Origin: Ruminococcus sp. CAG:563
GTDB taxonomy: Bacteria > Bacillota > Clostridia > Oscillospirales > Acutalibacteraceae
Direction of reading: 5' to 3'
DNA length: 64,000 nucleotides
NCBI GenBank assembly: GCA_000434915.1
Contig: FR882080.1
Location: 26,377-90,376 of the forward strand
Shown: positions 26,059 through 61,138 of the stretch, one piece after another
How positions within the stretch are numbered: the first letter of the stretch is position 1
Layout of the letters: every line of letters begins with the position of its first letter
Translations under genes and position numbers: made by a program
Notes under the pieces: generated by a model
The model's database searches: none
The model's input: the letters and a program-made list of their open reading frames with translations, nothing else
Told to the model about the DNA's origin: nothing

Positions 26059-28182
26059 ATGAAAAGAATCGCAAAATTTATTGCCTACCACCCGAAGACG
26101 ATAACGATTATTGCCGTCTTGCTTCTCATTCCCGCTGCAATCGGCTACATCAACACCTTCGTTAACTACGATATTCTTTCGTATCTTCCGGGTGACCTCG
26201 ATTCGGTCAAGGGCGAAAATGAGCTGGATGAAACCTTCAACAGTGCCTCAATGTCATTCTTAGTTATTGAGGATATGCCGTCAAAGGACGTCGCAGCCTT
26301 GAAAGAAAAAATCGCAAAGGTTGATAATGTCAGCAGCGTTATCTGGGTTAACGATATCGCAGACATAAGCATTCCGCAGGAAATAATTCCGCAGGCCGTC
26401 AAGGACATATTCTACAGCAAAGACGGCAAATGTACAATGATGCTTATACAGTATAAATACAAGGCCGTCACCGACGAGACCATGCAGGCCATTGAGGACG
26501 TCAGAGGCTTGCTCAACAATCAGTGCTTCCTCAGCGGCATGGGCGTCATCATGAAGGATACGAGAGACCTCGCAGATTCGCAGGCTCCGGTATTCATTGC
26601 AATCGCTATTGCAATCGCCCTTGTTGTCATGACCTTCTGCATGGAGTCATGGGTTGAGCCTTGGGTTCTTCTTGCGGCACTGTGCATGGCGGTTGTTTAC
26701 AACATGGGCACAAACCTCATATTCGGTCAGATATCGTACATTACTCAATGTATCGCCGCAATTCTACAGCTTGGCGTTACGATGGACTATTCGGTATTTC
26801 TCATTGACAGATTTGAAGAGGAAAAGCCGAAATATGCAGACAAGAGAGACGCTATGGCAAGTGCAATCCAGGGCGCATTTCTTTCTCTCTCCGGCAGCTC
26901 GCTGACAACAATATTCGGTTTCCTTGCGCTCTGCTTCATGGATCTTTCACTCGGCAAGGATATAGGTCTTGTTATGGCAAAGGGCGTTGTATTCGGTGTT
27001 CTTACCGTTACAATCGTTCTCCCCGCTCTTGTTCTTCAGTGCGATAAGGTTATTCACAAGTATCGCCACAGAAGCTTCATTCCAAAGTTTGACAAGCTCA
27101 ACAACTTTGTTGTCAACCACAAGAAGGTTTGGGTTGCAATTTTCGTTGTTCTCTTCATTCCGTCATACATCATGCAGTCCAATGTCAATGTTTACTACTC
27201 AATGGACAGAATGTTACCCGATGACATCGGCTGTATCGCCGCACTCAACAAGATGAAAGATGAGTTCAACATGGCAACCTCGCACTTCATCATTGTTGAT
27301 GACAGCCTTGACGCTTCCGACCTCGTTAAGATGGAGAATGAGATCAAGGATACCGCAGGCGTTACAAACATGGTCGCATACAACAACTTCGTAGGTTCGG
27401 GTATTCCCGATTCAATGATTCCCGATGAGCTGAAGAGCATAGCAAAATCCGGCGGCAGACAGATGATTCTCGTCAACACATCATATGTTGCAGCAACGGA
27501 CGAATGTAACGAACAGCTAACCAAGATAAATAATATCGTTAAAAAATACGATAAGAACGGCTACGTCACCGGTGAGGGTGCAATGTACAAGGATTTGATT
27601 GACATCACCGATCACGACTTCAAGCTGACAAGCGTACTTTCAATTCTTTCGATATTCATTCTTATCGCAATCATCTTCAAATCAATTTCGATTCCGACGA
27701 TACTTGTTATGTCGATTGAGCTTGCGATATTCGTCAATAAGGCGATATCGTTCGCAACGGGCACGACGCTGTCGTTCATAGCCCCGACAATTATCGGCTG
27801 TGTTCAGCTCGGTGCAACGGTTGACTACGCAATTCTTCTTACAACACGTTTCCGTGAGGAGATGAGAAACGGCCACAACAAGCTCGACGCAATCAAGATT
27901 GCCGCCAATGCTTCCGACCGTTCGATATTCCAGAGTGCGCTCGTATTCTTCGGTGCAACCTTCGGCGTATTCCTCACCTGCGATATCAAGATAGTTAAAG
28001 AAGTTTGTCTCCTGCTCGCAAGAGGTTCGCTTATCAGCGCAGGCGTCATAGTATTCATGCTTACGCCGCTGCTTCTTGTACTTGAGGGAGTAATCGAAAA
28101 GACGACTTACGACTTCCTCGGCAAAAAGTTCAAGCTTAAAATGAAGAAAAAAGAAAACAAAACGGCAGATAACAATGCCTGA
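26059..28182 (+). CDS. MMPL/RND-superfamily membrane transporter
   Basis: 707 aa, two 6-TM bundles each preceded by a large loop; MMPL-type N-terminus. Confidence 0.75.
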   Translation: MKRIAKFIAYHPKTITIIAVLLLIPAAIGYINTFVNYDILSYLPGDLDSVKGENELDETFNSASMSFLVIEDMPSKDVAALKEKIAKVDNVSSVIWVNDIADISIPQEIIPQAVKDIFYSKDGKCTMMLIQYKYKAVTDETMQAIEDVRGLLNNQCFLSGMGVIMKDTRDLADSQAPVFIAIAIAIALVVMTFCMESWVEPWVLLAALCMAVVYNMGTNLIFGQISYITQCIAAILQLGVTMDYSVFLIDRFEEEKPKYADKRDAMASAIQGAFLSLSGSSLTTIFGFLALCFMDLSLGKDIGLVMAKGVVFGVLTVTIVLPALVLQCDKVIHKYRHRSFIPKFDKLNNFVVNHKKVWVAIFVVLFIPSYIMQSNVNVYYSMDRMLPDDIGCIAALNKMKDEFNMATSHFIIVDDSLDASDLVKMENEIKDTAGVTNMVAYNNFVGSGIPDSMIPDELKSIAKSGGRQMILVNTSYVAATDECNEQLTKINNIVKKYDKNGYVTGEGAMYKDLIDITDHDFKLTSVLSILSIFILIAIIFKSISIPTILVMSIELAIFVNKAISFATGTTLSFIAPTIIGCVQLGATVDYAILLTTRFREEMRNGHNKLDAIKIAANASDRSIFQSALVFFGATFGVFLTCDIKIVKEVCLLLARGSLISAGVIVFMLTPLLLVLEGVIEKTTYDFLGKKFKLKMKKKENKTADNNA

Positions 28183-28201: not shown

Positions 28202-29875
28202 ATGAAAAACAATCTGAAAAAAATCATGTGCGTTCTTCTCTGCGCTTCTATGCTTGCATCTTTCTCTGCCTGTTCAAAGAAGAATGACGGCAGCACAGAC
28301 GAACCGACCACAACTCCGAGTCAGTCCGACACAGCAAAGGTAAGCTATAACACAGCCGCAACCTCATACAAGAAGAATGAAACGGTTTATGTCAACATGG
28401 CTTCCGACGGCGAGGTTTCAAGCAAGGTCGTAACAGACTGGCTTCATACGGATAAGGCTCAGACCTATATCGACGACAAGACGGACCTTTCCGATATCAA
28501 GAACGTTAAGTCCAACATTAAGCCTGTCAAAAACAAGGACGGCTCATATCGCTGGAACATGGAATCAACCGACCTCTATTACAGAGGCACAACGGACAAG
28601 GAGCTTCCCGTTAACTTCAAGATAACCTACTACCTTGACGGCAAGGAGACCGAAGCCAAGGATATCGCAGGCAAAAAGGGTCAGGTCAAGATGGTTGTTA
28701 CCGTCAACAACGAGTCCAAAAAGACCGTTAAGGTCAGCGGCAAGGACACAACGATCTACACGCCGTTCATCGTTGCCGGCGGCATGATTCTTCCGGAGGA
28801 TAGTTTCTCAAACGTTACCGTTGAAAACGGCAAGACCATCGGCGACGGTACAAAGGAAATTGCACTCATGGTCGGTGCACCCGGACTCAAGGAGAGCCTC
28901 AACCTCAGCGATGAGATGCTCAAGCAGCTCGGCGATTTCAACTTCTCCAACACCTACACAATTACGGCAGACACGGATAAGTTTGAACTTTCAAACATGA
29001 TTTTCGCCGTTCTTCCCCTCTCGGCTATCGAGAACAGCGTTGAGAACAACCTCCCGAACACCGTTGCAGACGTCAAGAACACCCTCAATGAGGTTCAGGC
29101 AGTTATCGACAAGTTCAACAGCATGAACGCAACCGAGCTTATCAACAAGCTCTTCTCCAACACGGATAACCTTACGGAGCTTGCCTCCTCGGTTTCCGAT
29201 GTTACAAAGCTTTATAACGACAACAAGGCTCTCCTCGATGTACTCGAGAAGTACATGACTAAGGAAAATATTGCAGCAATCGAAAAACTCATCGCCGACA
29301 CCGACGACACAGACCTTGAACAGGTTGCAAAGCTTCTCAACAACCCGATTCTTCAGAAGTTCTTCAAGCAGCTTCCGACCCTTTCAAAGGATATGGAAAA
29401 CGTAATGCCTATCATCACGGGACTTTCAAACGATATGCAGAAGCCTGAGGTTCAGAAAGCTCTCAAGAATCTTCCGCAGACCATTGAAACACTCAAGAAG
29501 CTCAAGACAACGATTGACAAGAATCAGGATTTGTTCGACACACTCGGCAACACTCTTGATGACGACACTATCGCTTCTCTCAAGGGCATCATGAGCTCAC
29601 TTGACAAGATTATTTCCGAGAACGACCTTGAGGCTTATGCAAAACTTGCAGACAACGCCGACGATCTTATAGCCCGTGCAAAGGCTTGGATCGAAGCAGG
29701 TCAGAATTATGACATCTTCACAACAAAGGGTGCAGCTTCAAGCACATCGGTAATGTTCGTTTACGAGACAGCCGCTATTTCAGCTCCGTCCGTGGAGACC
29801 AAGGAAGAGGCCGAGACCGTTGAAGAGAATGCAATTCTCAAATGGTTCAAGAACCTTTTCAAGAAGGATAAATAA
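28202..29875 (+). CDS. Secreted lipoprotein (coiled-coil rich), partner of the MMPL transporter
   Basis: Signal peptide with lipobox 'LASFSAC'; the ATG at 28202 has a GGAGG RBS; C-terminal 'ILKWFKNLFKKDK' tail. Confidence 0.6.
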   Translation: MKNNLKKIMCVLLCASMLASFSACSKKNDGSTDEPTTTPSQSDTAKVSYNTAATSYKKNETVYVNMASDGEVSSKVVTDWLHTDKAQTYIDDKTDLSDIKNVKSNIKPVKNKDGSYRWNMESTDLYYRGTTDKELPVNFKITYYLDGKETEAKDIAGKKGQVKMVVTVNNESKKTVKVSGKDTTIYTPFIVAGGMILPEDSFSNVTVENGKTIGDGTKEIALMVGAPGLKESLNLSDEMLKQLGDFNFSNTYTITADTDKFELSNMIFAVLPLSAIENSVENNLPNTVADVKNTLNEVQAVIDKFNSMNATELINKLFSNTDNLTELASSVSDVTKLYNDNKALLDVLEKYMTKENIAAIEKLIADTDDTDLEQVAKLLNNPILQKFFKQLPTLSKDMENVMPIITGLSNDMQKPEVQKALKNLPQTIETLKKLKTTIDKNQDLFDTLGNTLDDDTIASLKGIMSSLDKIISENDLEAYAKLADNADDLIARAKAWIEAGQNYDIFTTKGAASSTSVMFVYETAAISAPSVETKEEAETVEENAILKWFKNLFKKDK

Positions 29876-33122: not shown

Positions 33123-36100
33123 TCAGCAAACATCTTTAATGAGGTCGATAAACCACTTGATTATCTTCACAAGAATCGAGATAAGCCAATCACGGATTTT
33201 TTCCCATTTTGTCTTGAGCTTCTGAACCTCGGTATTCTCGTTGCGCTTTGCGTGGCAGACCGTACATTCCTCATGTGCGATACCTTTTTCCGTCTCGGTC
33301 GCTTCCTTATCCGTCACCCATTCAAAGGTATGCTCACCCTTTTCGATTACGGAATCGCCGTACTTGCACTCTTTCCAGTGCTCGTTCTCGTCGAACTTCC
33401 AATCGCTGTAATCGTGAGCGGCATTTACGGTAATTTTGACCATTGCCATGTTAGCAAAAGAATCAACAGCAATAATCTTGAACTCACCGTTTGCGGGTTC
33501 AGCCGTATAATATCCGTCTGCGTCCGGCTCAACATTTTTGCCGTTTATTATTACGATTGCCGTACTCGATGTGTCATTGTCGGTTACCTTAAACTTCTGA
33601 GGTCCGCAATAAATCTTGCCGTTTTCAAGACCGATTATTACCGGCTTTTCGGTATCTCTCCAAACCGCACCGAGCGTAACCGTGTCAATGCTGTCGTCCT
33701 GAACAAGCTCGCCGTATGTGCAATTCAAAGTTGTTACGCTCAATTTCGGAGAAGCAATGTTCCAGCCGATGAATTCAAATCCTCCCTCTTTTGTCGGAGG
33801 AACAACACCGTCGAGAACCTTATCGTCCCAGTGGAGCGTCTTGTCGGCAACGGGAGTGCCGCCTCTTGTATCAAACTTAATCGTATAGGTTTTTGCCATC
33901 CACTCTGCCACCAGGGTAATTCCGCTTACCTTATCATCTGCAGCGAGGTCGGAAAACTTTGTATCTGACGAAACTGCCGAATCAGCGTACCTCCAGCCTG
34001 CGAATGTGTAGCCTGCCTTTGTCGGAGCCGAAACGCCGTCGAGCACCTTGTCGCTCCATGCGAGAAACTTATCCGCAACTGCCGTTCCGCCGTTTGAGTC
34101 AAAGCTTACGATATAACCGTTGGCTATCCACTTTGCCGTATAGGTAACAGTCTTGTTTATGAGGCTCGTCTGCTCCCAGCCTGAGAAGGTATAACCTGCT
34201 CGCACAACGTTTTCCGCCGTCGGGAGTGCAAGCGTTTCATTTGCTTTATAGCTTGTCGGTGCAGTGTAGCCCTCTGCCCATGCACCGCCGTCAAGGTCGT
34301 AAACAACGCTGACATCAACAGCCTTCGGGTTTAATTTGAGTGCAGGAACGACGCCCACGCCTGTGCCGTAAACTCCCTGACCGAGAGCCGCCCAGCCGTA
34401 GCTGCTGACGAGGTAAACCGTTTCGGCATCGCCCGGGGTACGAAGCCACCAATGCGGATAACCCTGGCTGATATATACGCCCTGACATTTTGAATAATCC
34501 GTACCTTTGAGCTTTCTTGCTTCGTCAAATTCCGAATTTGATGAGTTGAAGCCGTATGCGCTGTTAATTACATCGTCAAACGAGAGAATAAATATTTTAT
34601 CGCCCGTATCGGTGCCGAACCAAGTGCCGTCCGGGCTGTTATTCTCAAGGAACGTTGTGCCTATCAGCATCTTCTCCTCACGGGAGAATGCCGTGTTATA
34701 AAATGTCTTGTTGAGCCACCGTCTCAGTGAGCAGGTTTCCCAATCGGAGACATAATTTGTGAAGTCCTTGCTGTTATAAAGCTTATCGTCTTTTCTTATA
34801 ACGAAATTCTGATAAGACTGCGAGTCAATTACGTTATCGCACATAATATACCCCTCGTCGGGGTCAAGCACACGCCATGTCAGCGGTTCGTATTTAAAAT
34901 AATATACATTGTTCGGGTGATAGTCGTTGTCTTTCTGGTTAGAAAAAACATCTCCTTTTAATCCGCCGCCGGTGCCCGGTCTGTACTCCGAAAAAGTAAC
35001 CGCGCGGAACATTTCGCCGCCGCTGTAGAAATCCTTATACAGCATGAAATCGCCCGGCTCCATTTTGCCGTCAGTGCTATTGCCTGTTCCGCTGTAATAT
35101 TTATAGGAAACCCAAAGATAATTCTCCGAGTCCGCTTCAAGCTTTGCGACCTCATCGGCGTCCGTGACCTCGGACTGAGGATATGAGCCGAACTCGATTT
35201 TGCTGCCCTTAGCGAGCGTCGGCGTCTTCGGATTGAACTTGAACGCAGGAACAACGGCGTTATCGGTTCTGTTGACGTTGTAATAACCGCTGCCGCTGGA
35301 AACGATCCAACCGCCCGGAGCTACGCCAAAAGCGAATGCGCCGTAGAAACCCGTTGTACGCAGCCACCAATACGGAATGTTGCCGCCTGTATACGAAACA
35401 ACATCTGCACCTTGGCACATTGCATAATCCGTAGCCGGTCTTACTCTTGCAAGATCGCTGCGTGATCCGTCCTCATCAAAACCGTAATCGCTGTTCATTG
35501 CGTCAAAAACACTAATTGTAAAAATCTTATCAAAAGTGCCTGCACAGTCATATTTCGAACTAAACGGATTGTTGTTGTCAAGATAGGTTTTACCTATCTG
35601 AGCCTTTTCCTCCGCCGTGAAAGCGGTGTTGTAGAAATCCTTATTCAGCCACTCTCTCAGAGAGCTTTTTGACCAATCGTTAGCCAAATACTTGCAGTCC
35701 TTGCTATTATAAACCCTTTGTCCCAATGCGGAATCATAAGAGTCGGGATCATAATAGGAAAAGTTCTCAAAAGCCTGAGCGTCAATGGCAATATTGGACA
35801 TAACAAAGCCCTCTTCGGGGTCAAGAACCGTCCATGTCAGCGGCTCATACTTAAAGAAGTAAGTCGTGTTCAGCTCGTAGCCGTTATTGTCTTGAGCCGA
35901 AGTAGCCTCGGATGAAACATCGCTCGTTACCTTAGGACGGTACTGCGAGAATCTGACCGCACGGTATTTTTCGCCGTTCAGCTTAAGATCGGCATACTTC
36001 ATGTAGTCCGACGCTGTCATTTTGCCGTCATACTCCGTTCCCGTGCCGATGTAGTAGTCATATGACACCCACACGTCGTCGGTCAGGAAGCCGTCAAGTA

Positions 36101-40702: not shown

Positions 40703-41881
40703 TCAGTTCACACTAATGGGCTGCTGCGGCTTGCAAATCGAGCATATCATGCGGATAAACACCGTCTTAAAGCTGAGCTTTTCGACGTAATGCGGCGCAG
40801 TCAGCTTATATTCGCCGAGCCTTTTGCCGTCCAGCTTGACCGTCACGGTGCCCAAGGTTTGATTTGATTCAACAGGTGCTTCAACCGCGGCGGCAAGGTC
40901 AATTTCCTGAGTAATATTTTTCTGCTTACCCTTAGGAATAAGGAACTGCGAACCGCCCGAGATTTGCGGCGTGAGTGTTTTCTCCTCTCCCTTGATGATA
41001 TTCACGTTTGTAATCAGCGATTTGTCGATCTCCGGCGTTACGGTTTCATAGTTTGCAAAACCCCAGTTTAGCATTGCCTTTGCACCCTCGAAGCGGTCCT
41101 TGCTGTTGTCCGCACCCATCACGACGGCTATGAGGCTTGTTCCGTTTCTCGTTGCCGTTGCAGAAATACAGCAGCCGGCCTTTGATGTCGTACCTGTTTT
41201 CAGACCCGTTGCACCCTCATAAAATCGAATCAGCTTGTTTGTGTTGACAAGCTCGGTTTTGCCGTCACGAAGCGAATCCATCCATATTTTTGTGTACTGC
41301 TGAATAAACCGGTGCTTCATCAGCTCCCTTGACATCAGTGCGATATCATACGCCGTTGTCAAATGCGTGGTTGACGTGTCGTCAAGCCCCGTGCAGTTGT
41401 CAAAATGAGTGTCTTTCATGCCCAGCTCATGTGCACGGTCATTCATCATCGTAACAAACGCTTCGTCACTGCCTGCTATATATTCGCCGAGAGCGGTACA
41501 TGCGTCGTTTGCGCTGTAAACGGCAGTTGCCTTGAGAAGCTCATCAACGGTCATTGTTTCGCCCTCTTTAAGCCAAATCTGCGAGCCACCCTTTTTTGAC
41601 GCATTGGTGCTCGCCGTCACCTCGTCAGTCAGCCTTATCGTGTTGGAATCTATCGCTTCGGCCACCAACAGCATAGACATGATTTTCGTCACCGACGCAG
41701 GATAGAGCTTTTCGTTTTCGTTCATTCGCATGAGTACCGTTCCGGTTGTTTGATCCATCAGAACAGCCGATTTCGCCTTGATATCAACCGGCATCATTGA
41801 ATCATTCTCCGCCGAAGCGAAAACGCCGAACAATCCGAACGTCATAATAACGCTTAATAAAATTACAGTTGCTTTTTTCAT
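40703..41881 (-). CDS. dacB: D-alanyl-D-alanine carboxypeptidase, peptidase S11 (DacB/DacF-like)
   Basis: Signal peptide plus the SVTK, SANDA and KTGTT active-site triad motifs. Confidence 0.8.
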   Translation of the reverse strand: MKKATVILLSVIMTFGLFGVFASAENDSMMPVDIKAKSAVLMDQTTGTVLMRMNENEKLYPASVTKIMSMLLVAEAIDSNTIRLTDEVTASTNASKKGGSQIWLKEGETMTVDELLKATAVYSANDACTALGEYIAGSDEAFVTMMNDRAHELGMKDTHFDNCTGLDDTSTTHLTTAYDIALMSRELMKHRFIQQYTKIWMDSLRDGKTELVNTNKLIRFYEGATGLKTGTTSKAGCCISATATRNGTSLIAVVMGADNSKDRFEGAKAMLNWGFANYETVTPEIDKSLITNVNIIKGEEKTLTPQISGGSQFLIPKGKQKNITQEIDLAAAVEAPVESNQTLGTVTVKLDGKRLGEYKLTAPHYVEKLSFKTVFIRMICSICKPQQPISVN

Positions 41882-42004
41882 AATAAGCCTCCCTTTCACT
41901 GTCGCACACAATAAATATATGCCCCGTTAACGGCAAATAAAACTTGCACTATATGCTGTTTTGCTTTATAATAATCTTTTAGATTACCAAACGGAGCTGA
42001 TAAT

Positions 42005-52979: not shown

Positions 52980-53516
52980 TCAGTGCTTCTTAAATAACTT
53001 TCTGAATTGCTTCTGCCATTTTCTGTAGTATGCCATTTCGAGCTTTTCAATCGCAATATCATACATAATGAATGCGGCTAATCCAAGCACAACAAGCAGC
53101 GGAATCATGAACCCCTGCGTATCCTCCAAAAGCTCGGTCGAAATGCCGAAAACGTGCATTATTATATAATAAGTCGCAACGATTACCCCGACAAAGAACA
53201 CCGCCTTGACGATGTAGCCGAGAAACTTCGGCAGCTTGTCAAAGAGGAGCTTAACAAGCGGATAGTAGCCTATCAGAGCTATGTAAATCGCCACAGCCTC
53301 TTTCTCGGGAACAACAAGCGCACTAATCACCGAGGTTCCCACATAAACTCCGAGTGCCCATTTCCAGTCGCACTCAATACGCATAAACATAACGAGGATC
53401 GCCGCAAGTGCCGGAATCGCATAGGTCAGGAACGGAATAACAGAGGCCAGCATCATCAACGCCGCCGAAAGTCCCATACACATTCCGCCCAAAGCCGTTT
53501 TTACCGTATTCTTCAT
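52980..53516 (-). CDS. Small polytopic membrane protein, function unknown
   Basis: 178 aa, 4-5 TM. Confidence 0.4.
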   Translation of the reverse strand: MKNTVKTALGGMCMGLSAALMMLASVIPFLTYAIPALAAILVMFMRIECDWKWALGVYVGTSVISALVVPEKEAVAIYIALIGYYPLVKLLFDKLPKFLGYIVKAVFFVGVIVATYYIIMHVFGISTELLEDTQGFMIPLLVVLGLAAFIMYDIAIEKLEMAYYRKWQKQFRKLFKKH

Positions 53517-53526
53517 ATCATCACCG

Positions 53527-54129
53527 TCAACAGCATCTTATAAGGTCGCCGCCCATACATTCGCAGCAACAATCCGCACACATAAGCGACGAACAGATAT
53601 TGCAAGGACTGCAGCAGCCGTCGTTATCGTCATTCTGTTTGTTTTTTCTGAAATTGCCCTTTGACTCACGCTCAAGCTGATTGAATGCAGCTTCATATTC
53701 CGAATTGCCCGGCTCCATCTCCTTGGCTTTTCTGAAGCTTTCGAGTGCGCTCTCAAGCCAGCCTCTTCTGTGCTGGATTGTGCCCTTGAGATAATACCAC
53801 TCGGCATTTCTGCGTTGGTAAGGAATACCGTCAAGCAGTGTTTCGGCGTCGTCAATTCTGCCGCCGTTGAGCTTTGCCCTTATATCGCCGAATTCGGAGG
53901 TCTGACCGCCTGCCGCATTTGCGCCGAAGCCGGTATCGGCATAGGAGTTGTCCGTTCTGCTGCCGCTTAAATTATTGATTATAAAATCGTAAGCATCGTT
54001 CAGCTCATTCATTTTCGCCTGATCTTCGCTGTATCGACGAGCCTTGTCACGATATGCTCTTTTGATTTCATCCATGCTTGCCGACGACGTTACGCCGAGC
54101 ACTTCATACGGATTTTTCACAACGTTCAA
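53527..54129 (-). CDS. J-domain protein with a TPR-like segment and a poly-Cys C-terminus
   Basis: 'NPYEVLGVTSSASMDEIKRAYR' J domain; C-terminal 'CCSPCNICSSLMCADCCCECMGGDLIRCC'. Confidence 0.6.
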   Translation of the reverse strand: MNVVKNPYEVLGVTSSASMDEIKRAYRDKARRYSEDQAKMNELNDAYDFIINNLSGSRTDNSYADTGFGANAAGGQTSEFGDIRAKLNGGRIDDAETLLDGIPYQRRNAEWYYLKGTIQHRRGWLESALESFRKAKEMEPGNSEYEAAFNQLERESKGNFRKNKQNDDNDGCCSPCNICSSLMCADCCCECMGGDLIRCC

Positions 54130-56635: not shown

Positions 56636-59464
56636 TTACTTAAAGAGCTTCAAAAACCAGTTGATCGCCTTAACAAATACCGCTTTAACGGCATTGAATG
56701 CTACCTGAAGCTTATCCTTGAAGCTTTGTTTATCCTCAATATTGAAGTCAACGCTTGCCGTTCCTTTGAAATTGCCTATGCCCTTTATTATGGCGGTTGC
56801 CGTGCCGGCCGATTTGTTGTTCTTATAGGACACGGTGTAATCCTCACCCTCCCTGAGCGTTTTGCCGTTGAACTTAATCTTGAGCTTTGGCTCGCAAGGA
56901 GTCTGTCCGTTAACAGTCTGCGTCGGGATCGAAGCAATTTCAGCCTTGTCGATTGAAACGGCGATAATTGCAAAATCAACCTTAGTAATGAGCATTGAGA
57001 AATCCCCAAGACCTGTCACGATAACGTTCGCCGTGCCGACATTCAGGTTATTAATATATTCCGTTGAATAGTCCTTGTTGTCCGTAAGCTTTCTGTCGGA
57101 AAATCTGACGGAAACCTGCGGCTCAATCTTCTTGCCCGTGTAGCTCTGATTTGCGATAGGAGCCACGATGAGTGTTGTTACTCTTATTCTGTTTGCCTTT
57201 GCATAGCTCTCGGCGTATGAATTCTCGTTGCAATAAATTGTGAGCTTTTCGCAGCCCTCAAACGCATCATCGGCAATTTTTTCAACAGAATCGGCAATGA
57301 CTGCCGTTTCAAGGTTTTCGCACGATGCGAATGCAAGCGTACGAATCTCCTTAACATTTCCGCCGACCTCAAGGATTTTGAGCTGCGAGAAATACTGGAA
57401 ACTGCTCTCGCCAACCGTCTGTGCATCCAGATTTGAAAGTGTCAGCTTAACATCGGTGATTCCTGTTTCGTCAAATGCGCCCTCATCAATGCAGGTTATA
57501 TCCTCAAATGTGAAGTCCTTCAATGATGTACAATATCGGAAAGCCTCATACAAAATTTCCTTGTTTCCGATCCTGTTCCATGTGACCTTATATAATTTCT
57601 CACAATCTGCAAATGCCCACTCTCTGATATATTCCGTATTCTTTGGGATAACTACAGTTTCAAGCTCCTTACAGAACTCAAATGTACTGCCTCCGAAATC
57701 AACGATCGAATCAGGCATGACAACATTCTTCACAGCCGTATTTTCAAAAGCACCCGGGCCTATCGTAATAACGCCGTCCTCAAAGCTTATCTCGCTGAGA
57801 TTCTTACAATCGGTAAATAAATATCCGGGAATAATTTTCTGATTTTTGGTAAAGGCAAATGAAGTTACCATGGTCTTGCGAAAAGCACCGTTTCCCAGTT
57901 CCGCTCTTTGCGCAAAGTCAGCGTTTGTGATCTTTGTGTAAGCGAAGGCACGATTACCTACAAATTCAATATTGCTGTTCTCACTGACAATAACTTCCTT
58001 CAATTCAAGGCAATCATTAAACGCCTCGCGTTCGATTCTCTTTATACTGTCGGGCAAAGTGATGCTTTCCAAAGATTTACAGTTATCAAATGCCTGCGCC
58101 GCAATCGATGTCCAGCCGTCCTCAAATTCAACATTTTTGAGCGTTCGGCAGTATGCCATTGCACCGTCCCATGATTTGAGAGTTTTCGGGATTTTTATCG
58201 ACTCGATCGAATTATACGCAAATGCCTTCACTCCGATAAACTTCAGCGATTTCGGAAATTCAACCGAGCTGATTCTTCCCATTTCGTCGGAAATAGAGTT
58301 GCTGTTGGCTCTTGCAAATGCCTCCGTACCTATGTATTCGATTCCGTTCGGGAGTTTCAGCTCGCCATCGAACGGGCAGAATGCGAATGCCTGACCGCAA
58401 AGCGTTTTCAGCGACGCCGGAAGAACCGGATTTGCAAGTGAGGTACAAAGTGCAAATGCACCGTAACCAATGTACTCAACCGAATCGGGAATGCTGACGG
58501 ATTCAAGCGAGGTACAGCCTGTGAATGCTAAGTCCCCTATTCTTTTCAGCGTTGACGGAAATTTGACTGCAAGAAAACTATATTTTGAAGTGTATTTCCC
58601 GATATCGTCCTTTGATACCGACTTATACCTGCTTTCCACTTTGCTTTCAAATGCCTTTGCTCCGATACTTACAACCTTATGCGAGTCAAGCTCGGCGGGT
58701 ATATCCAGAAGAGAAGCATCCGCAGCTCCCGTATAGCCTGTTATTTCGGCATTATTATCCTCATCAAGCGTATAGGTGAAATAGCCCGACGAATACTCTT
58801 TCTTCGCTTCCTTGCTCTTGAAAATATAGTATTCGTTCTCTTTTCCGCTGTAAAAGTAACCACCATTTGCAAGATAACAATAAATATCAATACTTGGCCA
58901 TTCCTTGAGCATAAATACAGTTTTATCGCTCATAGAAAATTTTGAAAACGATGCTTTTGAGGACGGCGACAAAGATTTTTCTATAATAAACTTCTCAATA
59001 CCGTCACATTTATGGAAAGAATCATTGGTAAATTTATAACAGCTTTTCGGCAGATGAACCGTCTTTATCGACGGACAATTACTGAATGATTTCCTTGTCA
59101 TTGATTCAAAACCGTCATTAAAAACTACCTCTTCAAGATTCGGACAGTCAACAAAAGTTTCCCTGTTCATTTCACGCACATTTTCCGAAAAAATCACCTT
59201 GCGTGCTTTTTTATTAATAAATGCACCCTTTTCGATTTTAGAAACGGGAATACCGTCAATCTCATTCGGAATCGTTACAATTTCCTCATCCTTCAAATAT
59301 TCAAGAATTCTAAGCTTTCCGTCATAACTGTAATTATAACGATAATCCTCTGTCATTTGGTCGCTGAAATCGTATGCCTTCGCCGGCCTGGCAACGGATA
59401 CCATGGTTATAACCGATATAACGGCAAGCATTACGGATAAAATCTTAGAAAGTGTTTTCTTCAT
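56636..59464 (-). CDS. BspA-type leucine-rich-repeat cell-surface protein
   Basis: Signal peptide 'MKKTLSKILSVMLAVISVITMVSVARPAKA'; more than 15 'xxAFxxCxxLxxIxIPxSVxxIgxxAF' LRR_5 repeats; C-terminal Ig-like region; 'INWFLKLFK' tail. Confidence 0.7.
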   Translation of the reverse strand: MKKTLSKILSVMLAVISVITMVSVARPAKAYDFSDQMTEDYRYNYSYDGKLRILEYLKDEEIVTIPNEIDGIPVSKIEKGAFINKKARKVIFSENVREMNRETFVDCPNLEEVVFNDGFESMTRKSFSNCPSIKTVHLPKSCYKFTNDSFHKCDGIEKFIIEKSLSPSSKASFSKFSMSDKTVFMLKEWPSIDIYCYLANGGYFYSGKENEYYIFKSKEAKKEYSSGYFTYTLDEDNNAEITGYTGAADASLLDIPAELDSHKVVSIGAKAFESKVESRYKSVSKDDIGKYTSKYSFLAVKFPSTLKRIGDLAFTGCTSLESVSIPDSVEYIGYGAFALCTSLANPVLPASLKTLCGQAFAFCPFDGELKLPNGIEYIGTEAFARANSNSISDEMGRISSVEFPKSLKFIGVKAFAYNSIESIKIPKTLKSWDGAMAYCRTLKNVEFEDGWTSIAAQAFDNCKSLESITLPDSIKRIEREAFNDCLELKEVIVSENSNIEFVGNRAFAYTKITNADFAQRAELGNGAFRKTMVTSFAFTKNQKIIPGYLFTDCKNLSEISFEDGVITIGPGAFENTAVKNVVMPDSIVDFGGSTFEFCKELETVVIPKNTEYIREWAFADCEKLYKVTWNRIGNKEILYEAFRYCTSLKDFTFEDITCIDEGAFDETGITDVKLTLSNLDAQTVGESSFQYFSQLKILEVGGNVKEIRTLAFASCENLETAVIADSVEKIADDAFEGCEKLTIYCNENSYAESYAKANRIRVTTLIVAPIANQSYTGKKIEPQVSVRFSDRKLTDNKDYSTEYINNLNVGTANVIVTGLGDFSMLITKVDFAIIAVSIDKAEIASIPTQTVNGQTPCEPKLKIKFNGKTLREGEDYTVSYKNNKSAGTATAIIKGIGNFKGTASVDFNIEDKQSFKDKLQVAFNAVKAVFVKAINWFLKLFK

Positions 59465-60393
59465 TTTGTCTCCTCCTTAATTCCGAAGGTCGTATAAACT
59501 CCCTCGTATGTGATTGTTATAAAAGCAGTCCCATTAGGAAGCTTCTCTGTTTTAATTGTGTATTCTCCTCTGTTAAGCTTCTTCTCTCTCCTGTCGCTGT
59601 AAACCGCATAGACCTCCATGCCGCCCAGATCGATGTTATCTATGTCCTCCGTCGTGAAGTCAAATCCTTCCGGGAAAGATGCATAAACGGAATTGAGCAC
59701 CTTGGTGTCCTCCTTGCGAAGCACCCTTACCCTGAACGTTTCCGAAGCATTGCCGAAGCTTATCTTTACCGTTTCGTAACGCTCCCTTATGCCGAAGCCG
59801 TCATCCGCAGTAACCTTACAGTCGGCAAGCGGAACAATTTTTTCAGTTCCGTCGGAGTAGCTGACAACAGCCGTTATGCCGGATGTATCAAGCTTTTCGC
59901 CGATGTAGTATTCATCCTTGAAGCTGTCACCGAATCTGAGCCTTATTCCCGTCGGAATTGCCGCCTGCGTTGTCGGCTTTGTCGTGGTCGTTACGGCTTC
60001 GGTCGTCATTGTCCTTTCGGCGGTTGCACTCTCGGTCACAGCCTGAGTTACAGTGGTTGTTTTAGCTTCTCGTTTTTGCTCTATCGTATGGCTGACTGCC
60101 ACAGCACCGAAGCTTATCGCCGCCAATATCGCACATGCCGCCGCAACCGATACAAACTTCTGTCTAAAGGTTTTACCTGCGTGCTTCTTTACAAACGGAA
60201 TGACCTTTGCAAAGTTTTCGCTCTCAAGCTCCTCAAGCGTGTTTATACATTCATCAATAAAATCACAATTCGGCTCATCCTTTGAAAGCTCCTCGTCGAT
60301 AAGCGAATTAATAAGCTCTGCGACCTCTGCCTTAAAGCTTGTATCATCATATATGCTGTTGAGTATCTCTTTTGTTAACTTAAGATCATTCAC
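59461..60393 (-). CDS. Anti-sigma factor (single TM, extracytoplasmic domain)
   Basis: Immediately downstream of the sigma factor; cytoplasmic N-domain, TM 'FVSVAAACAILAAISFGAVAV'; 4-nt overlap with the LRR gene start. Confidence 0.5.
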   Translation of the reverse strand: MNDLKLTKEILNSIYDDTSFKAEVAELINSLIDEELSKDEPNCDFIDECINTLEELESENFAKVIPFVKKHAGKTFRQKFVSVAAACAILAAISFGAVAVSHTIEQKREAKTTTVTQAVTESATAERTMTTEAVTTTTKPTTQAAIPTGIRLRFGDSFKDEYYIGEKLDTSGITAVVSYSDGTEKIVPLADCKVTADDGFGIRERYETVKISFGNASETFRVRVLRKEDTKVLNSVYASFPEGFDFTTEDIDNIDLGGMEVYAVYSDRREKKLNRGEYTIKTEKLPNGTAFITITYEGVYTTFGIKEETK

Positions 60394-60409: not shown

Positions 60410-60940
60410 TCATGTTATACAGTAGGTTTTTACCAAATCTTTTATCCGACTGCGTAATCGTGAAACACGCTTTGCCGTTGCAGTCGGCGTGATGTTCAGA
60501 ATTTCGGAAATTTCCTTTAGTGATTTTCGCTTTATGAACTTCAATTCATAAAGAGCTCTTTCTTCAACCGTCAGCATCTCGATTAAGAGCCGTGCACATT
60601 CATCATAATCGAAATCATCGGGCAAGCTATCGGGCGGTGCGGCAATTTTTTCAGCCGCTTCGTCGATATCGACTGTTCGGCTCTGCCGCTTTCGGCAGCT
60701 TTCAATCGTCCTCTTAACGAAGTTATCCGCCGTCCTATACAGAAACGCTCTCGGCTGTTCGACCGTTTCTCCGTCCGTCAGCTTATTATGAAGAACTAAG
60801 AAGGCGTCCTGCACACAGTCCTCGGCATGCTGCGAAAATTCACCGAGCCGCACACGGCAGTATTTATAGATGCTCTGATAGTATTTTTCATAGTAATCGC
60901 CGACGGTGTTGTCCGTCAGCAAACGTTCGTCAACGTCCAT
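60410..60940 (-). CDS. RNA polymerase sigma-70 family factor, ECF-type
   Basis: Region-2-like 'YYEKYYQSIYKYCRVRL...DAFLVLHNKL' and region 4 'SLKEISEILNITPTATAKRVSRLR'. I place the start at ATG 60940 with an AGGAGGG RBS (the track's codon at 60946 is TTG). Confidence 0.7.
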   Translation of the reverse strand: MDVDERLLTDNTVGDYYEKYYQSIYKYCRVRLGEFSQHAEDCVQDAFLVLHNKLTDGETVEQPRAFLYRTADNFVKRTIESCRKRQSRTVDIDEAAEKIAAPPDSLPDDFDYDECARLLIEMLTVEERALYELKFIKRKSLKEISEILNITPTATAKRVSRLRSRIKDLVKTYCIT

Positions 60941-61138
60941 GTGCAACCCTCCTTTATTTTGTCCTTCATTTAGTAGTCAGCCCAAACCGGGTTTGTGACA
61001 TTAATTTTTCAAAAATTTTTTAATAAAAGAAAACAGCCGCCGCATTAAAGGGATTTCGCCTTAATGCGACAGCCATCGCAACCGTTAATATTATACAATA
61101 CAATCCGTACCGTTGCAATGAAAATGTTATCAAAATTA

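Follow-up and report, generated by a model that had tools for sequence, protein, structure and literature searches.

The window analysed here is a stretch of 64,000 nucleotides from Ruminococcus sp. CAG:563 (contig FR882080.1), an uncultured gut species, and it encodes three large proteins, P1, P2 and P3, that share a short C-terminal tail. The host species is prevalent in the gut, one window protein being indexed in 956 collection blocks (GCA_902472385.1). P1 (56636..59464, minus strand, 942 residues) is a leucine-rich repeat (LRR) protein of the BspA type (Pfam LRR_5, E=1e-102) with a signal peptide, two immunoglobulin-like domains and a C-terminal helix. It ends in …VKAINWFLKLFK, the last 12 codons and the stop codon occupying 56636-56674. 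P2 (33123..36278, minus strand, 1051 residues) combines a signal peptide with two DUF6273 domains, Flg_new repeats, a Cys-rich module and a C-terminal helix, and ends in …VKIIKWFIDLIKDVC. P3 (28175..29875, plus strand) is a probable lipoprotein without a Pfam match, 566 residues long or 557 from its probable start at 28202, in which an acidic linker leads to a short cationic tail ending in …AILKWFKNLFKKDK. Its open reading frame (ORF) overlaps by 8 bases the stop of the upstream gene for an MMPL-family transporter (26059..28182, plus strand; Pfam MMPL, E=6e-67). The ORFs, their translations and a motif scan bear out the initial annotation, which had described these three frames and their shared tail.

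The initial annotation had also considered the three carriers to bear N-terminal signal peptides, to be otherwise unrelated and to be devoid of any recognisable anchoring domain, and all three statements hold. Signal peptides were seen by inspection at the N-terminus of P1, with cleavage between ARPAKA and YDF, and of P2, between PVTMA and ADT. The N-terminus of P3 shows a lipobox-like site, ASFSA followed by the Cys. An all-against-all BLASTP comparison of P1, P2 and P3 gave significant similarity nowhere except in the signal peptides and the tails, and the Pfam content of the proteins differs. No LPXTG-like pentapeptide lies near the C-terminus of any of the three according to a regular-expression search, and neither Pfam nor NCBIfam returned a Gram_pos_anchor match. 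The same searches gave no SLH, choline-binding or other known anchoring domain in P1 to P3. Models of C-terminal sorting domains, including those of the exosortase, archaeosortase and rhombosortase types (PEP-CTERM, GlyGly-CTERM and PGF-CTERM), did not match these proteins either (NCBIfam at E<=1; Pfam). By hydropathy and inspection, their tails lack the transmembrane (TM) stretch and basic end of a sortase signal.

The position of the shared peptide is far from random. The pattern [ILVM][KNRQ]WFxx[LIVMF][FILVM]K has exactly three copies in the six-frame translation of the window, as does the stricter [ILVM][KN]WFxx[LI][FI]K, and all three lie 0-3 residues before the stop of a long signal-peptide ORF, namely P1, P2 and P3. 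As a background, we used 2,240 ORFs (639,000 residues) of unrelated loci that had been retrieved for different purposes. A relaxed motif occurs there in about 40 internal copies, and within six residues of the stop in none of the 2,240 ORFs, a zero that leaves out the ORFs that had seeded the fetch, versus 3 of 55 in the window. This difference corresponds to a Fisher p of 1.3e-5; the Poisson expectation is 0.025 (p = 2.6e-6). We also applied a broader score for cationic amphipathic C-termini. Positive results came from 10 of 2,179 ORFs in the background; within the signal-peptide class, they came from 1 of 280 background ORFs versus 2 of 10 in the window. The shared tail is a real observation, well beyond chance.

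A fourth carrier, P4, was found unplanned and outside the original window, 10 kb upstream of it in the same species (locus L370, 2101-3003). This Cys-rich signal-peptide protein of 300 residues is unrelated to P1-P3 and has no Pfam match. It ends in ...KLTFWQKIVKFFAKISLWFKNLFK, part of the longer stretch …NPYQKLTFWQKIVKFFAKISLWFKNLFK, so that its last residues read LWFKNLFK. By inspection, P1-P4 all carry an export signal with a K/R-rich n-region, a hydrophobic core of 12-16 residues and either an AxA-type site or a Cys. Next to P4 lies the gene of a Metallophos protein (L370 3274-4419) that shows no obvious signal peptide and ends in a TM segment and KAKKKK, a classical tail anchor.

Conservation of the tails acts at the peptide level, because codons differ at synonymous sites: synonymous codon choice varies between the tails, and of the six codons of WFKNLFK that allow synonymous change, three differ between P3 and P4. 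These differing codons rule out, as the cause, a conserved DNA or RNA element at the gene ends and also a single tail cassette that was recently duplicated or shuffled inside the genome. A full-length homolog search for P3 returned 120 orthologs at 87-97% identity and none more distant. Their tails vary on the polar face only (K/T/A, N/K, D/E), the hydrophobic positions remaining hydrophobic (I/V, L, W, F/I, L, F). P4 and its counterpart in a diverged strain are 68% identical overall, with a centre that has visibly diverged far more and 22 of the last 24 residues identical. A natural P2 variant of 742 residues (P0121) lacks the Flg_new repeat block of about 300 residues; it retains the signal peptide, both DUF6273 domains and the Cys-rich module, and its tail is identical to that of P2.

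Other searches for related tails brought little. A profile of the three tails run against 1.84 billion representative proteins recovered only P2 orthologs at E<=1e-3, a search too insensitive for a motif of 12-30 residues and therefore uninformative. A search for related loci with the tail alignment gave 600 pattern matches, none of which was confirmed by tblastn, and P1 as a single query found no match among viral contigs.

That the likeness of the tails is a compositional coincidence without function would be conceivable, since many proteins have basic amphipathic stretches, the motif is short and phage tape-measure-like proteins contain it internally. We regard this as highly improbable. 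The terminal position has a p of about 1e-5 to 1e-6 in the window, and P4 adds a case from outside the sample. Moreover, the P4 tail is kept where the rest of the protein diverges, and substitutions in the P3 orthologs are confined to the polar face.

In P1, P2 and P4, the nine-residue motif forms the final part of a C-terminal helix of 24-30 residues. Aligned on the Trp, these three tails have K(-4), W0, F+1, L+4, [FI]+5 and K+6 in common. P3 possesses just the final 12-15 residues of this tail type, placed behind its acidic linker. The P1 helix comprises about 29 residues, …FKDKLQVAFNAVKAVFVKAINWFLKLFK (56639..56728, minus strand), takes in the terminal segment singled out by the initial annotation, and has four Lys and two Asn scattered along its length. 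The P2 helix, KTKWEKIRDWLISILVKIIKWFIDLIKDVC (33126..33215, minus strand), has Cys as its last residue, and the P3 tail reads NAILKWFKNLFKKDK (29828..29872, plus strand).

The initial annotation proposed an analysis of amphipathicity. On the Fauchère-Pliska scale, the hydrophobic moment (µH) reaches 0.52-0.59 in the P1 tail, 0.67-0.68 in the P2 tail and 0.76 in the P3 tail. The respective net charges are +3/+4, +1/+2 and +4. The Heliquest-type discriminant D amounts to 1.55-1.81 for P1, 0.96-1.30 for P2 and 2.04 for P3; the reference values are 1.57 for the targeting sequence of Escherichia coli FtsA, 1.71 for MinD and 0.85 for the anchor of penicillin-binding protein (PBP) 5. The highest µH windows of P2, of both 11 and 18 residues, and that of P3 fall in the tails. 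The Kyte-Doolittle mean over 19 residues (KD19) is 1.14 for P1, 1.54 for P2 and -0.35 for P3. In an AlphaFold2 (AF2) model computed from the single sequence of the last 203 residues of P1, the last 29 form one helix, which has the best predicted local distance difference test (pLDDT) values of the model, 62-78. For P3, a model based on a shallow alignment places coil at residues 503-543 and, at low confidence, a helix at residues 544-552. By these measures, each tail is predicted to be a cationic amphipathic helix of high moment, with hydropathy below TM grade in P1 and P3 and borderline in P2.

The explanation that we favour, and consider probable on the basis of these sequence properties, makes the tail a peripheral membrane anchor: a cationic amphipathic alpha-helix at the C-terminus would bind, in-plane or obliquely, to the outer leaflet of the cytoplasmic membrane and thereby retain exported proteins. 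The carriers would first be exported by the Sec pathway, with removal of the signal peptide in P1, P2 and P4, and P3 would be lipid-modified instead. We infer that the free C-terminus would then form its helix on lipid and settle in, or obliquely into, the outer leaflet. The Trp and Phe would lie at the interface and the I/L/F face would be buried, the Lys residues pairing with anionic lipid head groups. The large surface proteins P1, P2 and P4 would in this way be kept associated with the cell without a sortase. P3 is a probable lipoprotein and its C-terminus would therefore already be near the same membrane, so that its tail may act as a second tether, beside the MMPL partner.

Both families of long tails have relatives that inform this explanation. 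The P1 gene start overlaps the stop of the gene for a Big_3 membrane protein, probably an anti-sigma factor (59461-60393, minus strand), and a gene for a sigma factor of the extracytoplasmic function (ECF) type lies upstream (60410-60946, minus strand; both assigned with Pfam). This cassette of ECF sigma factor, Big_3 protein and signal-peptide LRR protein recurs in a relative of 42% G+C content (L368, 492-2928), where the LRR gene is much shorter than that of P1 and contains an in-frame stop. The LRR protein of this relative ends in a Pro/Glu linker and then …ESVFDKVIDFVFEIITAILKVIAFVWNLVFSL, with the tail …FVFEIITAILKVIAFVWNLVFSL and a KD19 of 2.29.

With the last 132 residues of P2 as query, we found fragments in which the Cys-rich module (EHTFEW…C..CH) is followed by a C-terminal helix, ending in …RIYNWILKMIIKLIKLIIDFIYSIC and …KAWVVDIYKKIIKWLTNIINAIC. 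At one locus (L366), the combined module is carried by a DUF6273/Flg_new protein and also by the adjacent Pectate_lyase_5/Flg_new protein of 965 residues, which has a signal peptide; at another (L367), it stands on an InlB-B-repeat-like protein. Shuffling of the P2-type module of Cys-rich segment and helix is seen in L366. In the homologous modules of L366 and L367, the helix and the terminal Cys are kept and the WF pair is not. Among these relatives, the helix persists across evolutionary distance; WF and the charge pattern do not, and hydrophobicity ranges from interfacial to TM grade.

Cys is the last residue in four of five P2-type tails (window 33126-33140; P0123, P0124, P0125; L366 13437), which end in KDVC, YSIC or NAIC, and in one case in YSIR. 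This residue may be modified or may take part in a disulfide.

Hydropathy of TM grade in some relatives raises the possibility of a genuine TM tail anchor, in which the last 20 residues or so would stay in the bilayer as a stop-transfer segment after export of the body. Such an arrangement would belong to the C-anchored class of LocateP, defined by a signal peptide and a C-terminal TM helix with a positively charged tail and no LPXTG (PMC2375117). The tails studied here resemble this class by their signal peptide and hydrophobic or helical C-terminus without LPXTG, and those of the L368 ortholog and of P0123 (KD19 of 1.83) are TM-grade. The helices of P1, P2 and P4, with 24-30 residues, are also long enough to span a bilayer, and a TM anchor is plausible for the more hydrophobic relatives of the P1 and P2 types. 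As a general account of the four carriers, it nevertheless seems rather unlikely. The P3 tail has 12-15 residues and a negative KD19, and is therefore unable to span the bilayer. The P1 helix, with its Lys and Asn residues spread along it, falls below the TM criterion as P3 does, and P2 is borderline. In all four carriers, the motif is amphipathic rather than uniformly hydrophobic. The Lys residues are interspersed and no basic cytoplasmic cluster follows the hydrophobic stretch, the proteins ending in LFK, in KDVC (P2) or in VFSL (L368).

Several points weigh against the outer-leaflet helix that we favour. The tails of the L368 ortholog, P0123 and P2 are, by their KD19 of 2.29, 1.83 and 1.54, hydrophobic enough to span the bilayer, so that tails of the P1 and P2 types may either lie along it or cross it. 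An anchor at the level of the membrane leaves unexplained how P1, with its 942 residues, would reach through a Gram-positive wall. The AF2 models are poor overall, with a pLDDT of 41 for the P1 end and 42 for P3, and we drew on them for tail secondary structure alone. Finally, the tails of one genome share the residues K(-4), W, F, L, [FI] and K to a greater extent than cross-genome orthologs do, which hints at a specific partner.

Homologous surface proteins in other Oscillospiraceae carry sortase signals in the place of the helix. In Vescimonas fastidiosa pMM35_01 (L373, 789316-829516), six annotated proteins within 40 kb end in xPxTGD, a TM segment and a KKK-type tail, a sortase signal of the TGD type. 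One of the six is a pectate-lyase-like adhesin, another is cadherin-like, and a third has a Cys-rich module of the P2 type. The Vescimonas sortase-signal adhesin and the helix-ended adhesin of L366 are 39% identical (E = 7e-56), and their signal peptides are near-identical. Ruminococcus albus 7 has an adhesin of the pectate-lyase-like kind with NPATG, a TM segment and KKKDE at its end, and the LRR proteins in the sample examined have no tail of the helical type. Likewise, a 50-kb sample of Monoglobus contains many signal-peptide surface proteins, none of them with a tail of this kind. The helix is lineage-restricted and architecturally interchangeable with a sortase signal, because sortase signals fill its slot in homologs and the Monoglobus and R. 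albus samples are without it. Like LPXTG signals, the tails are C-terminal and found on the same surface-protein families; they differ in having no LPXTG-like motif, uniform TM stretch or terminal basic cluster, and attachment would be non-covalent. As separate observations, some of the six Vescimonas proteins are encoded in a collinear run of genes for surface proteins, one of the six is a 218-residue prenyltransferase-repeat protein, and the 861-kb "plasmid" that encodes them looks like an adhesin-rich secondary chromosome.

These comparisons bear on the sorting hypothesis of the initial annotation, which had proposed a C-terminal sorting or envelope-retention signal, or a membrane-inserting helix, and had suggested looking for a co-occurring sorting or processing gene. 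Retention through a membrane helix gains from the sortase signals that occupy the same slot in homologs. A dedicated, enzyme-recognised sorting tag is unsupported, as the tails show no structure of motif, TM segment and basic cluster and match no sorting model, and their carriers have no shared neighbour gene. A co-occurring sorting or processing gene was looked for among the neighbours of the four carriers, and none common to them was found.

Outside this species, we searched metagenomes for the exact peptide WFK[KN][LF]FKK with a low-noise, position-agnostic scan of 16-base patterns, which gave at least 120 matches; the counts that follow are a sample, among the matches listed. The peptide occurs in 43 ORFs of at least 100 residues. 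It lies no more than six residues from the stop in 14 of the 43 (1.6 expected; p = 2e-10, or p = 1e-6 with five P3 orthologs collapsed), directly after the start codon in 20, and internally in nine. Besides P3, the C-terminal carriers listed are a proteobacterial class-A PBP, a Cys-rich protein with a signal peptide, four proteins with the tail directly after a TM segment, a cytoplasmic protein resembling peptide deformylase and two doubtful cases. Among the N-terminal carriers listed are an amidase, a GTPase, a DUF502 membrane protein and a tRNA-binding protein. The carriers listed span many phyla and include cytoplasmic proteins.

With such a distribution, the peptide behaves as a generic terminal membrane-binding helix, found on both membrane faces, and not as a tag for a secretion-specific machine, because its carriers span phyla and include cytoplasmic proteins. 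The N-terminal version, MxWFKNLFKK, likewise suggests a widespread membrane-targeting helix of the same sequence type. According to the initial annotation, the motif should be enriched at the C-termini of secreted proteins and should not occur equally in cytoplasmic ones. The C-terminal enrichment stands, with 14 cases against 1.6 expected. Restriction to secreted proteins does not, given the deformylase-like, GTPase and tRNA-binding carriers and the 20 of 43 copies at N-termini. As a separate observation, WFK[KN]LFKK stands immediately behind the start Met (MxWFKNLFKK…) of many unrelated proteins, spread over a dozen of our metagenome loci.

Degenerate scans were dominated by chance. The pattern KWFxxLFKK gave at least 120 matches in genomes, mostly chance occurrences in AT-rich non-coding frames, and yielded a Lachnospiraceae signal-peptide protein with acidic repeats, ending in …GWQKVVKWFKNLFKK, and a bitopic FtsB-like protein of Saccharibacteria. 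In viral contigs, I[KN]WFxxLFK gave at least 120 matches, again mostly in AT-rich non-coding frames by chance, the others being mostly internal in long tape-measure-like proteins. The scans of genomes and viral contigs also supplied two loci (L035 and L064) and a background set. Halonatronum saccharophilum (L039, 2539-2565) and a related genome (L100) contain ORFs of 43-44 residues with the sequence MKAVGGGFKLPAP[FI]KWFKSLFKK and little beyond the tail; they may encode small membrane-active peptides or have arisen by chance.

Both the sortase comparison and the distribution of the peptide bear on the idea that the tail is a recognition signal, K-x3-WF-x2-L-[FI]-K, read by a dedicated partner such as a processing enzyme, a surface-layer component or a receptor in the membrane. 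In its favour, six positions are common to four unrelated proteins of a single genome, homolog tails in other genomes keep only the helix, peptide-level conservation is maintained despite different codons, and the tail takes the slot of the sortase signal in homologs. Against this idea, there is no tripartite signature and no match to an NCBIfam or Pfam sorting domain, P1-P4 have no common neighbouring gene, and unrelated proteins of many phyla, cytoplasmic ones included, have the identical peptide at one terminus or the other. No conserved machinery can be deduced from the Monoglobus and R. albus samples, which are without the tail. On balance, we judge a dedicated recognition signal to be improbable.

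A somewhat broader proposal would make K-x3-W-F-x2-L-[FI]-K a lineage-specific surface-retention signal, replacing sortase signals on adhesin-like families and read by a common partner, which might be a receptor, a specific lipid or lipoteichoic acid. It would explain the convergence on six positions within one genome, as opposed to the orthologous tails of other genomes, in which just the helix is retained. We hold this proposal to be unlikely.

Alternatively, the cationic helix could bind anionic wall polymers, whether lipoteichoic acids, wall teichoic acids or an acidic polysaccharide, or could make the carriers self-associate. A net charge of +2 to +4 with the Lys residues on one face would suit such binding, and the carriers are wall-exposed and adhesin-like. 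Electrostatic binding would not, however, need the conserved wide face of W/F/L/F-I, which is typical of lipid-binding helices, and tails of the P2 type have a low net charge of +1 to +2. Furthermore, the cytoplasmic and N-terminal copies of the peptide cannot meet wall polymers. Binding or self-association of this kind is doubtful to our mind, and we do not expect it to account for the tails.

The outer-leaflet amphipathic helix has an internal reference in the window itself. Apart from P1-P3, a single signal-peptide protein of the window has no additional TM segments, and this is a PBP5-type DD-carboxypeptidase (40703..41911, minus strand; Pfam Peptidase_S11, E=1.5e-71; PBP5_C at residues 288-378 of 402), with a 24-residue tail, …EKLSFKTVFIRMICSICKPQQPISVN, that occupies the classical position of an amphipathic anchor. 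Such C-terminal anchors of low-molecular-weight PBPs are also found in Streptococcus pneumoniae PBP3 and Bacillus subtilis DacA. In E. coli PBP5, a C-terminal amphipathic helix of about 18 residues attaches the protein to the outer face of the inner membrane, and the tail-deleted form deltaC18 was fractionated in earlier work (PMC2909392). The tails described here share with the PBP5/PBP6 anchors a carrier that is exported by Sec, here as predicted from the signal peptides, a terminal amphipathic helix and comparable µH. Their carriers are not PBPs but LRR, DUF6273 and Cys-rich proteins and a lipoprotein. They are also more cationic (+2 to +4 versus +1), have a WFxxL[FI]K consensus not seen in the PBP5 tail and, in P1, P2 and P4, form a longer helix of 24-30 residues.

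Likeness extends to the targeting sequences of MinD, FtsA and MreB, which are short, terminal, cationic amphipathic helices for which direct membrane binding is established. D and µH are comparable to those of FtsA and MinD, the FtsA tail GSWIKRLNSWLRKEF is patterned like …KWFKNLFKK, and the peptide in metagenomes prefers either terminus, as these targeting sequences do. MinD, FtsA and MreB are cytoplasmic proteins that bind the inner leaflet, whereas P1-P4 have signal peptides that would bring their tails to the outer leaflet. In composition and predicted in-plane binding, the tails also resemble antimicrobial peptides of the cecropin type (KWKLFKK…), which are linear, cationic and amphipathic and lie in-plane on anionic bilayers with the Trp at the interface; the tail here differs in being covalently joined to a large protein, as its terminus.

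Exported proteins with a C-terminal amphipathic anchor (PBP5/6) and terminal targeting helices (MinD, FtsA, MreB) are already known, and a literature search found nothing specific on these peptide strings or on a Clostridial C-terminal amphipathic anchor. What is new lies in the carriers, which are LRR/BspA-like, DUF6273/Flg_new and Cys-rich proteins and an MMPL-linked lipoprotein, and in the recurrent consensus within one uncultured gut species. The apparent use of a helix in place of the sortase signals of homologs is new as well. Surface proteins of abundant uncultured gut Clostridia are mostly without a recognisable anchor, and predictors call them "secreted". Should the tail prove to be a non-covalent membrane anchor that substitutes for LPXTG signals, many LRR/BspA-type and Flg_new/DUF6273 proteins of these bacteria would be cell-bound and become candidates for adhesion or for interaction with the host. 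They could then be flagged by a simple rule based on sequence, and the tail would be a compact, sortase-independent display tag. As the mechanism is established for PBP5-type enzymes, the gain would be in annotation and scope, not in principle.

Two further proteins of the window deserve mention. A multi-pass membrane protein without a Pfam match (52980-53516, minus strand) has, behind its TM segments, a basic amphipathic tail, …YYRKWQKQFRKLFKKH, that resembles the motif, and four of the metagenome loci encode post-TM tails of the same kind. Close to it, a DnaJ-domain protein (53527-54129, minus strand) has an extremely Cys-rich end, …CCSPCNICSSLMCADCCCECMGGDLIRCC, and the next gene encodes a DUF5685 protein.

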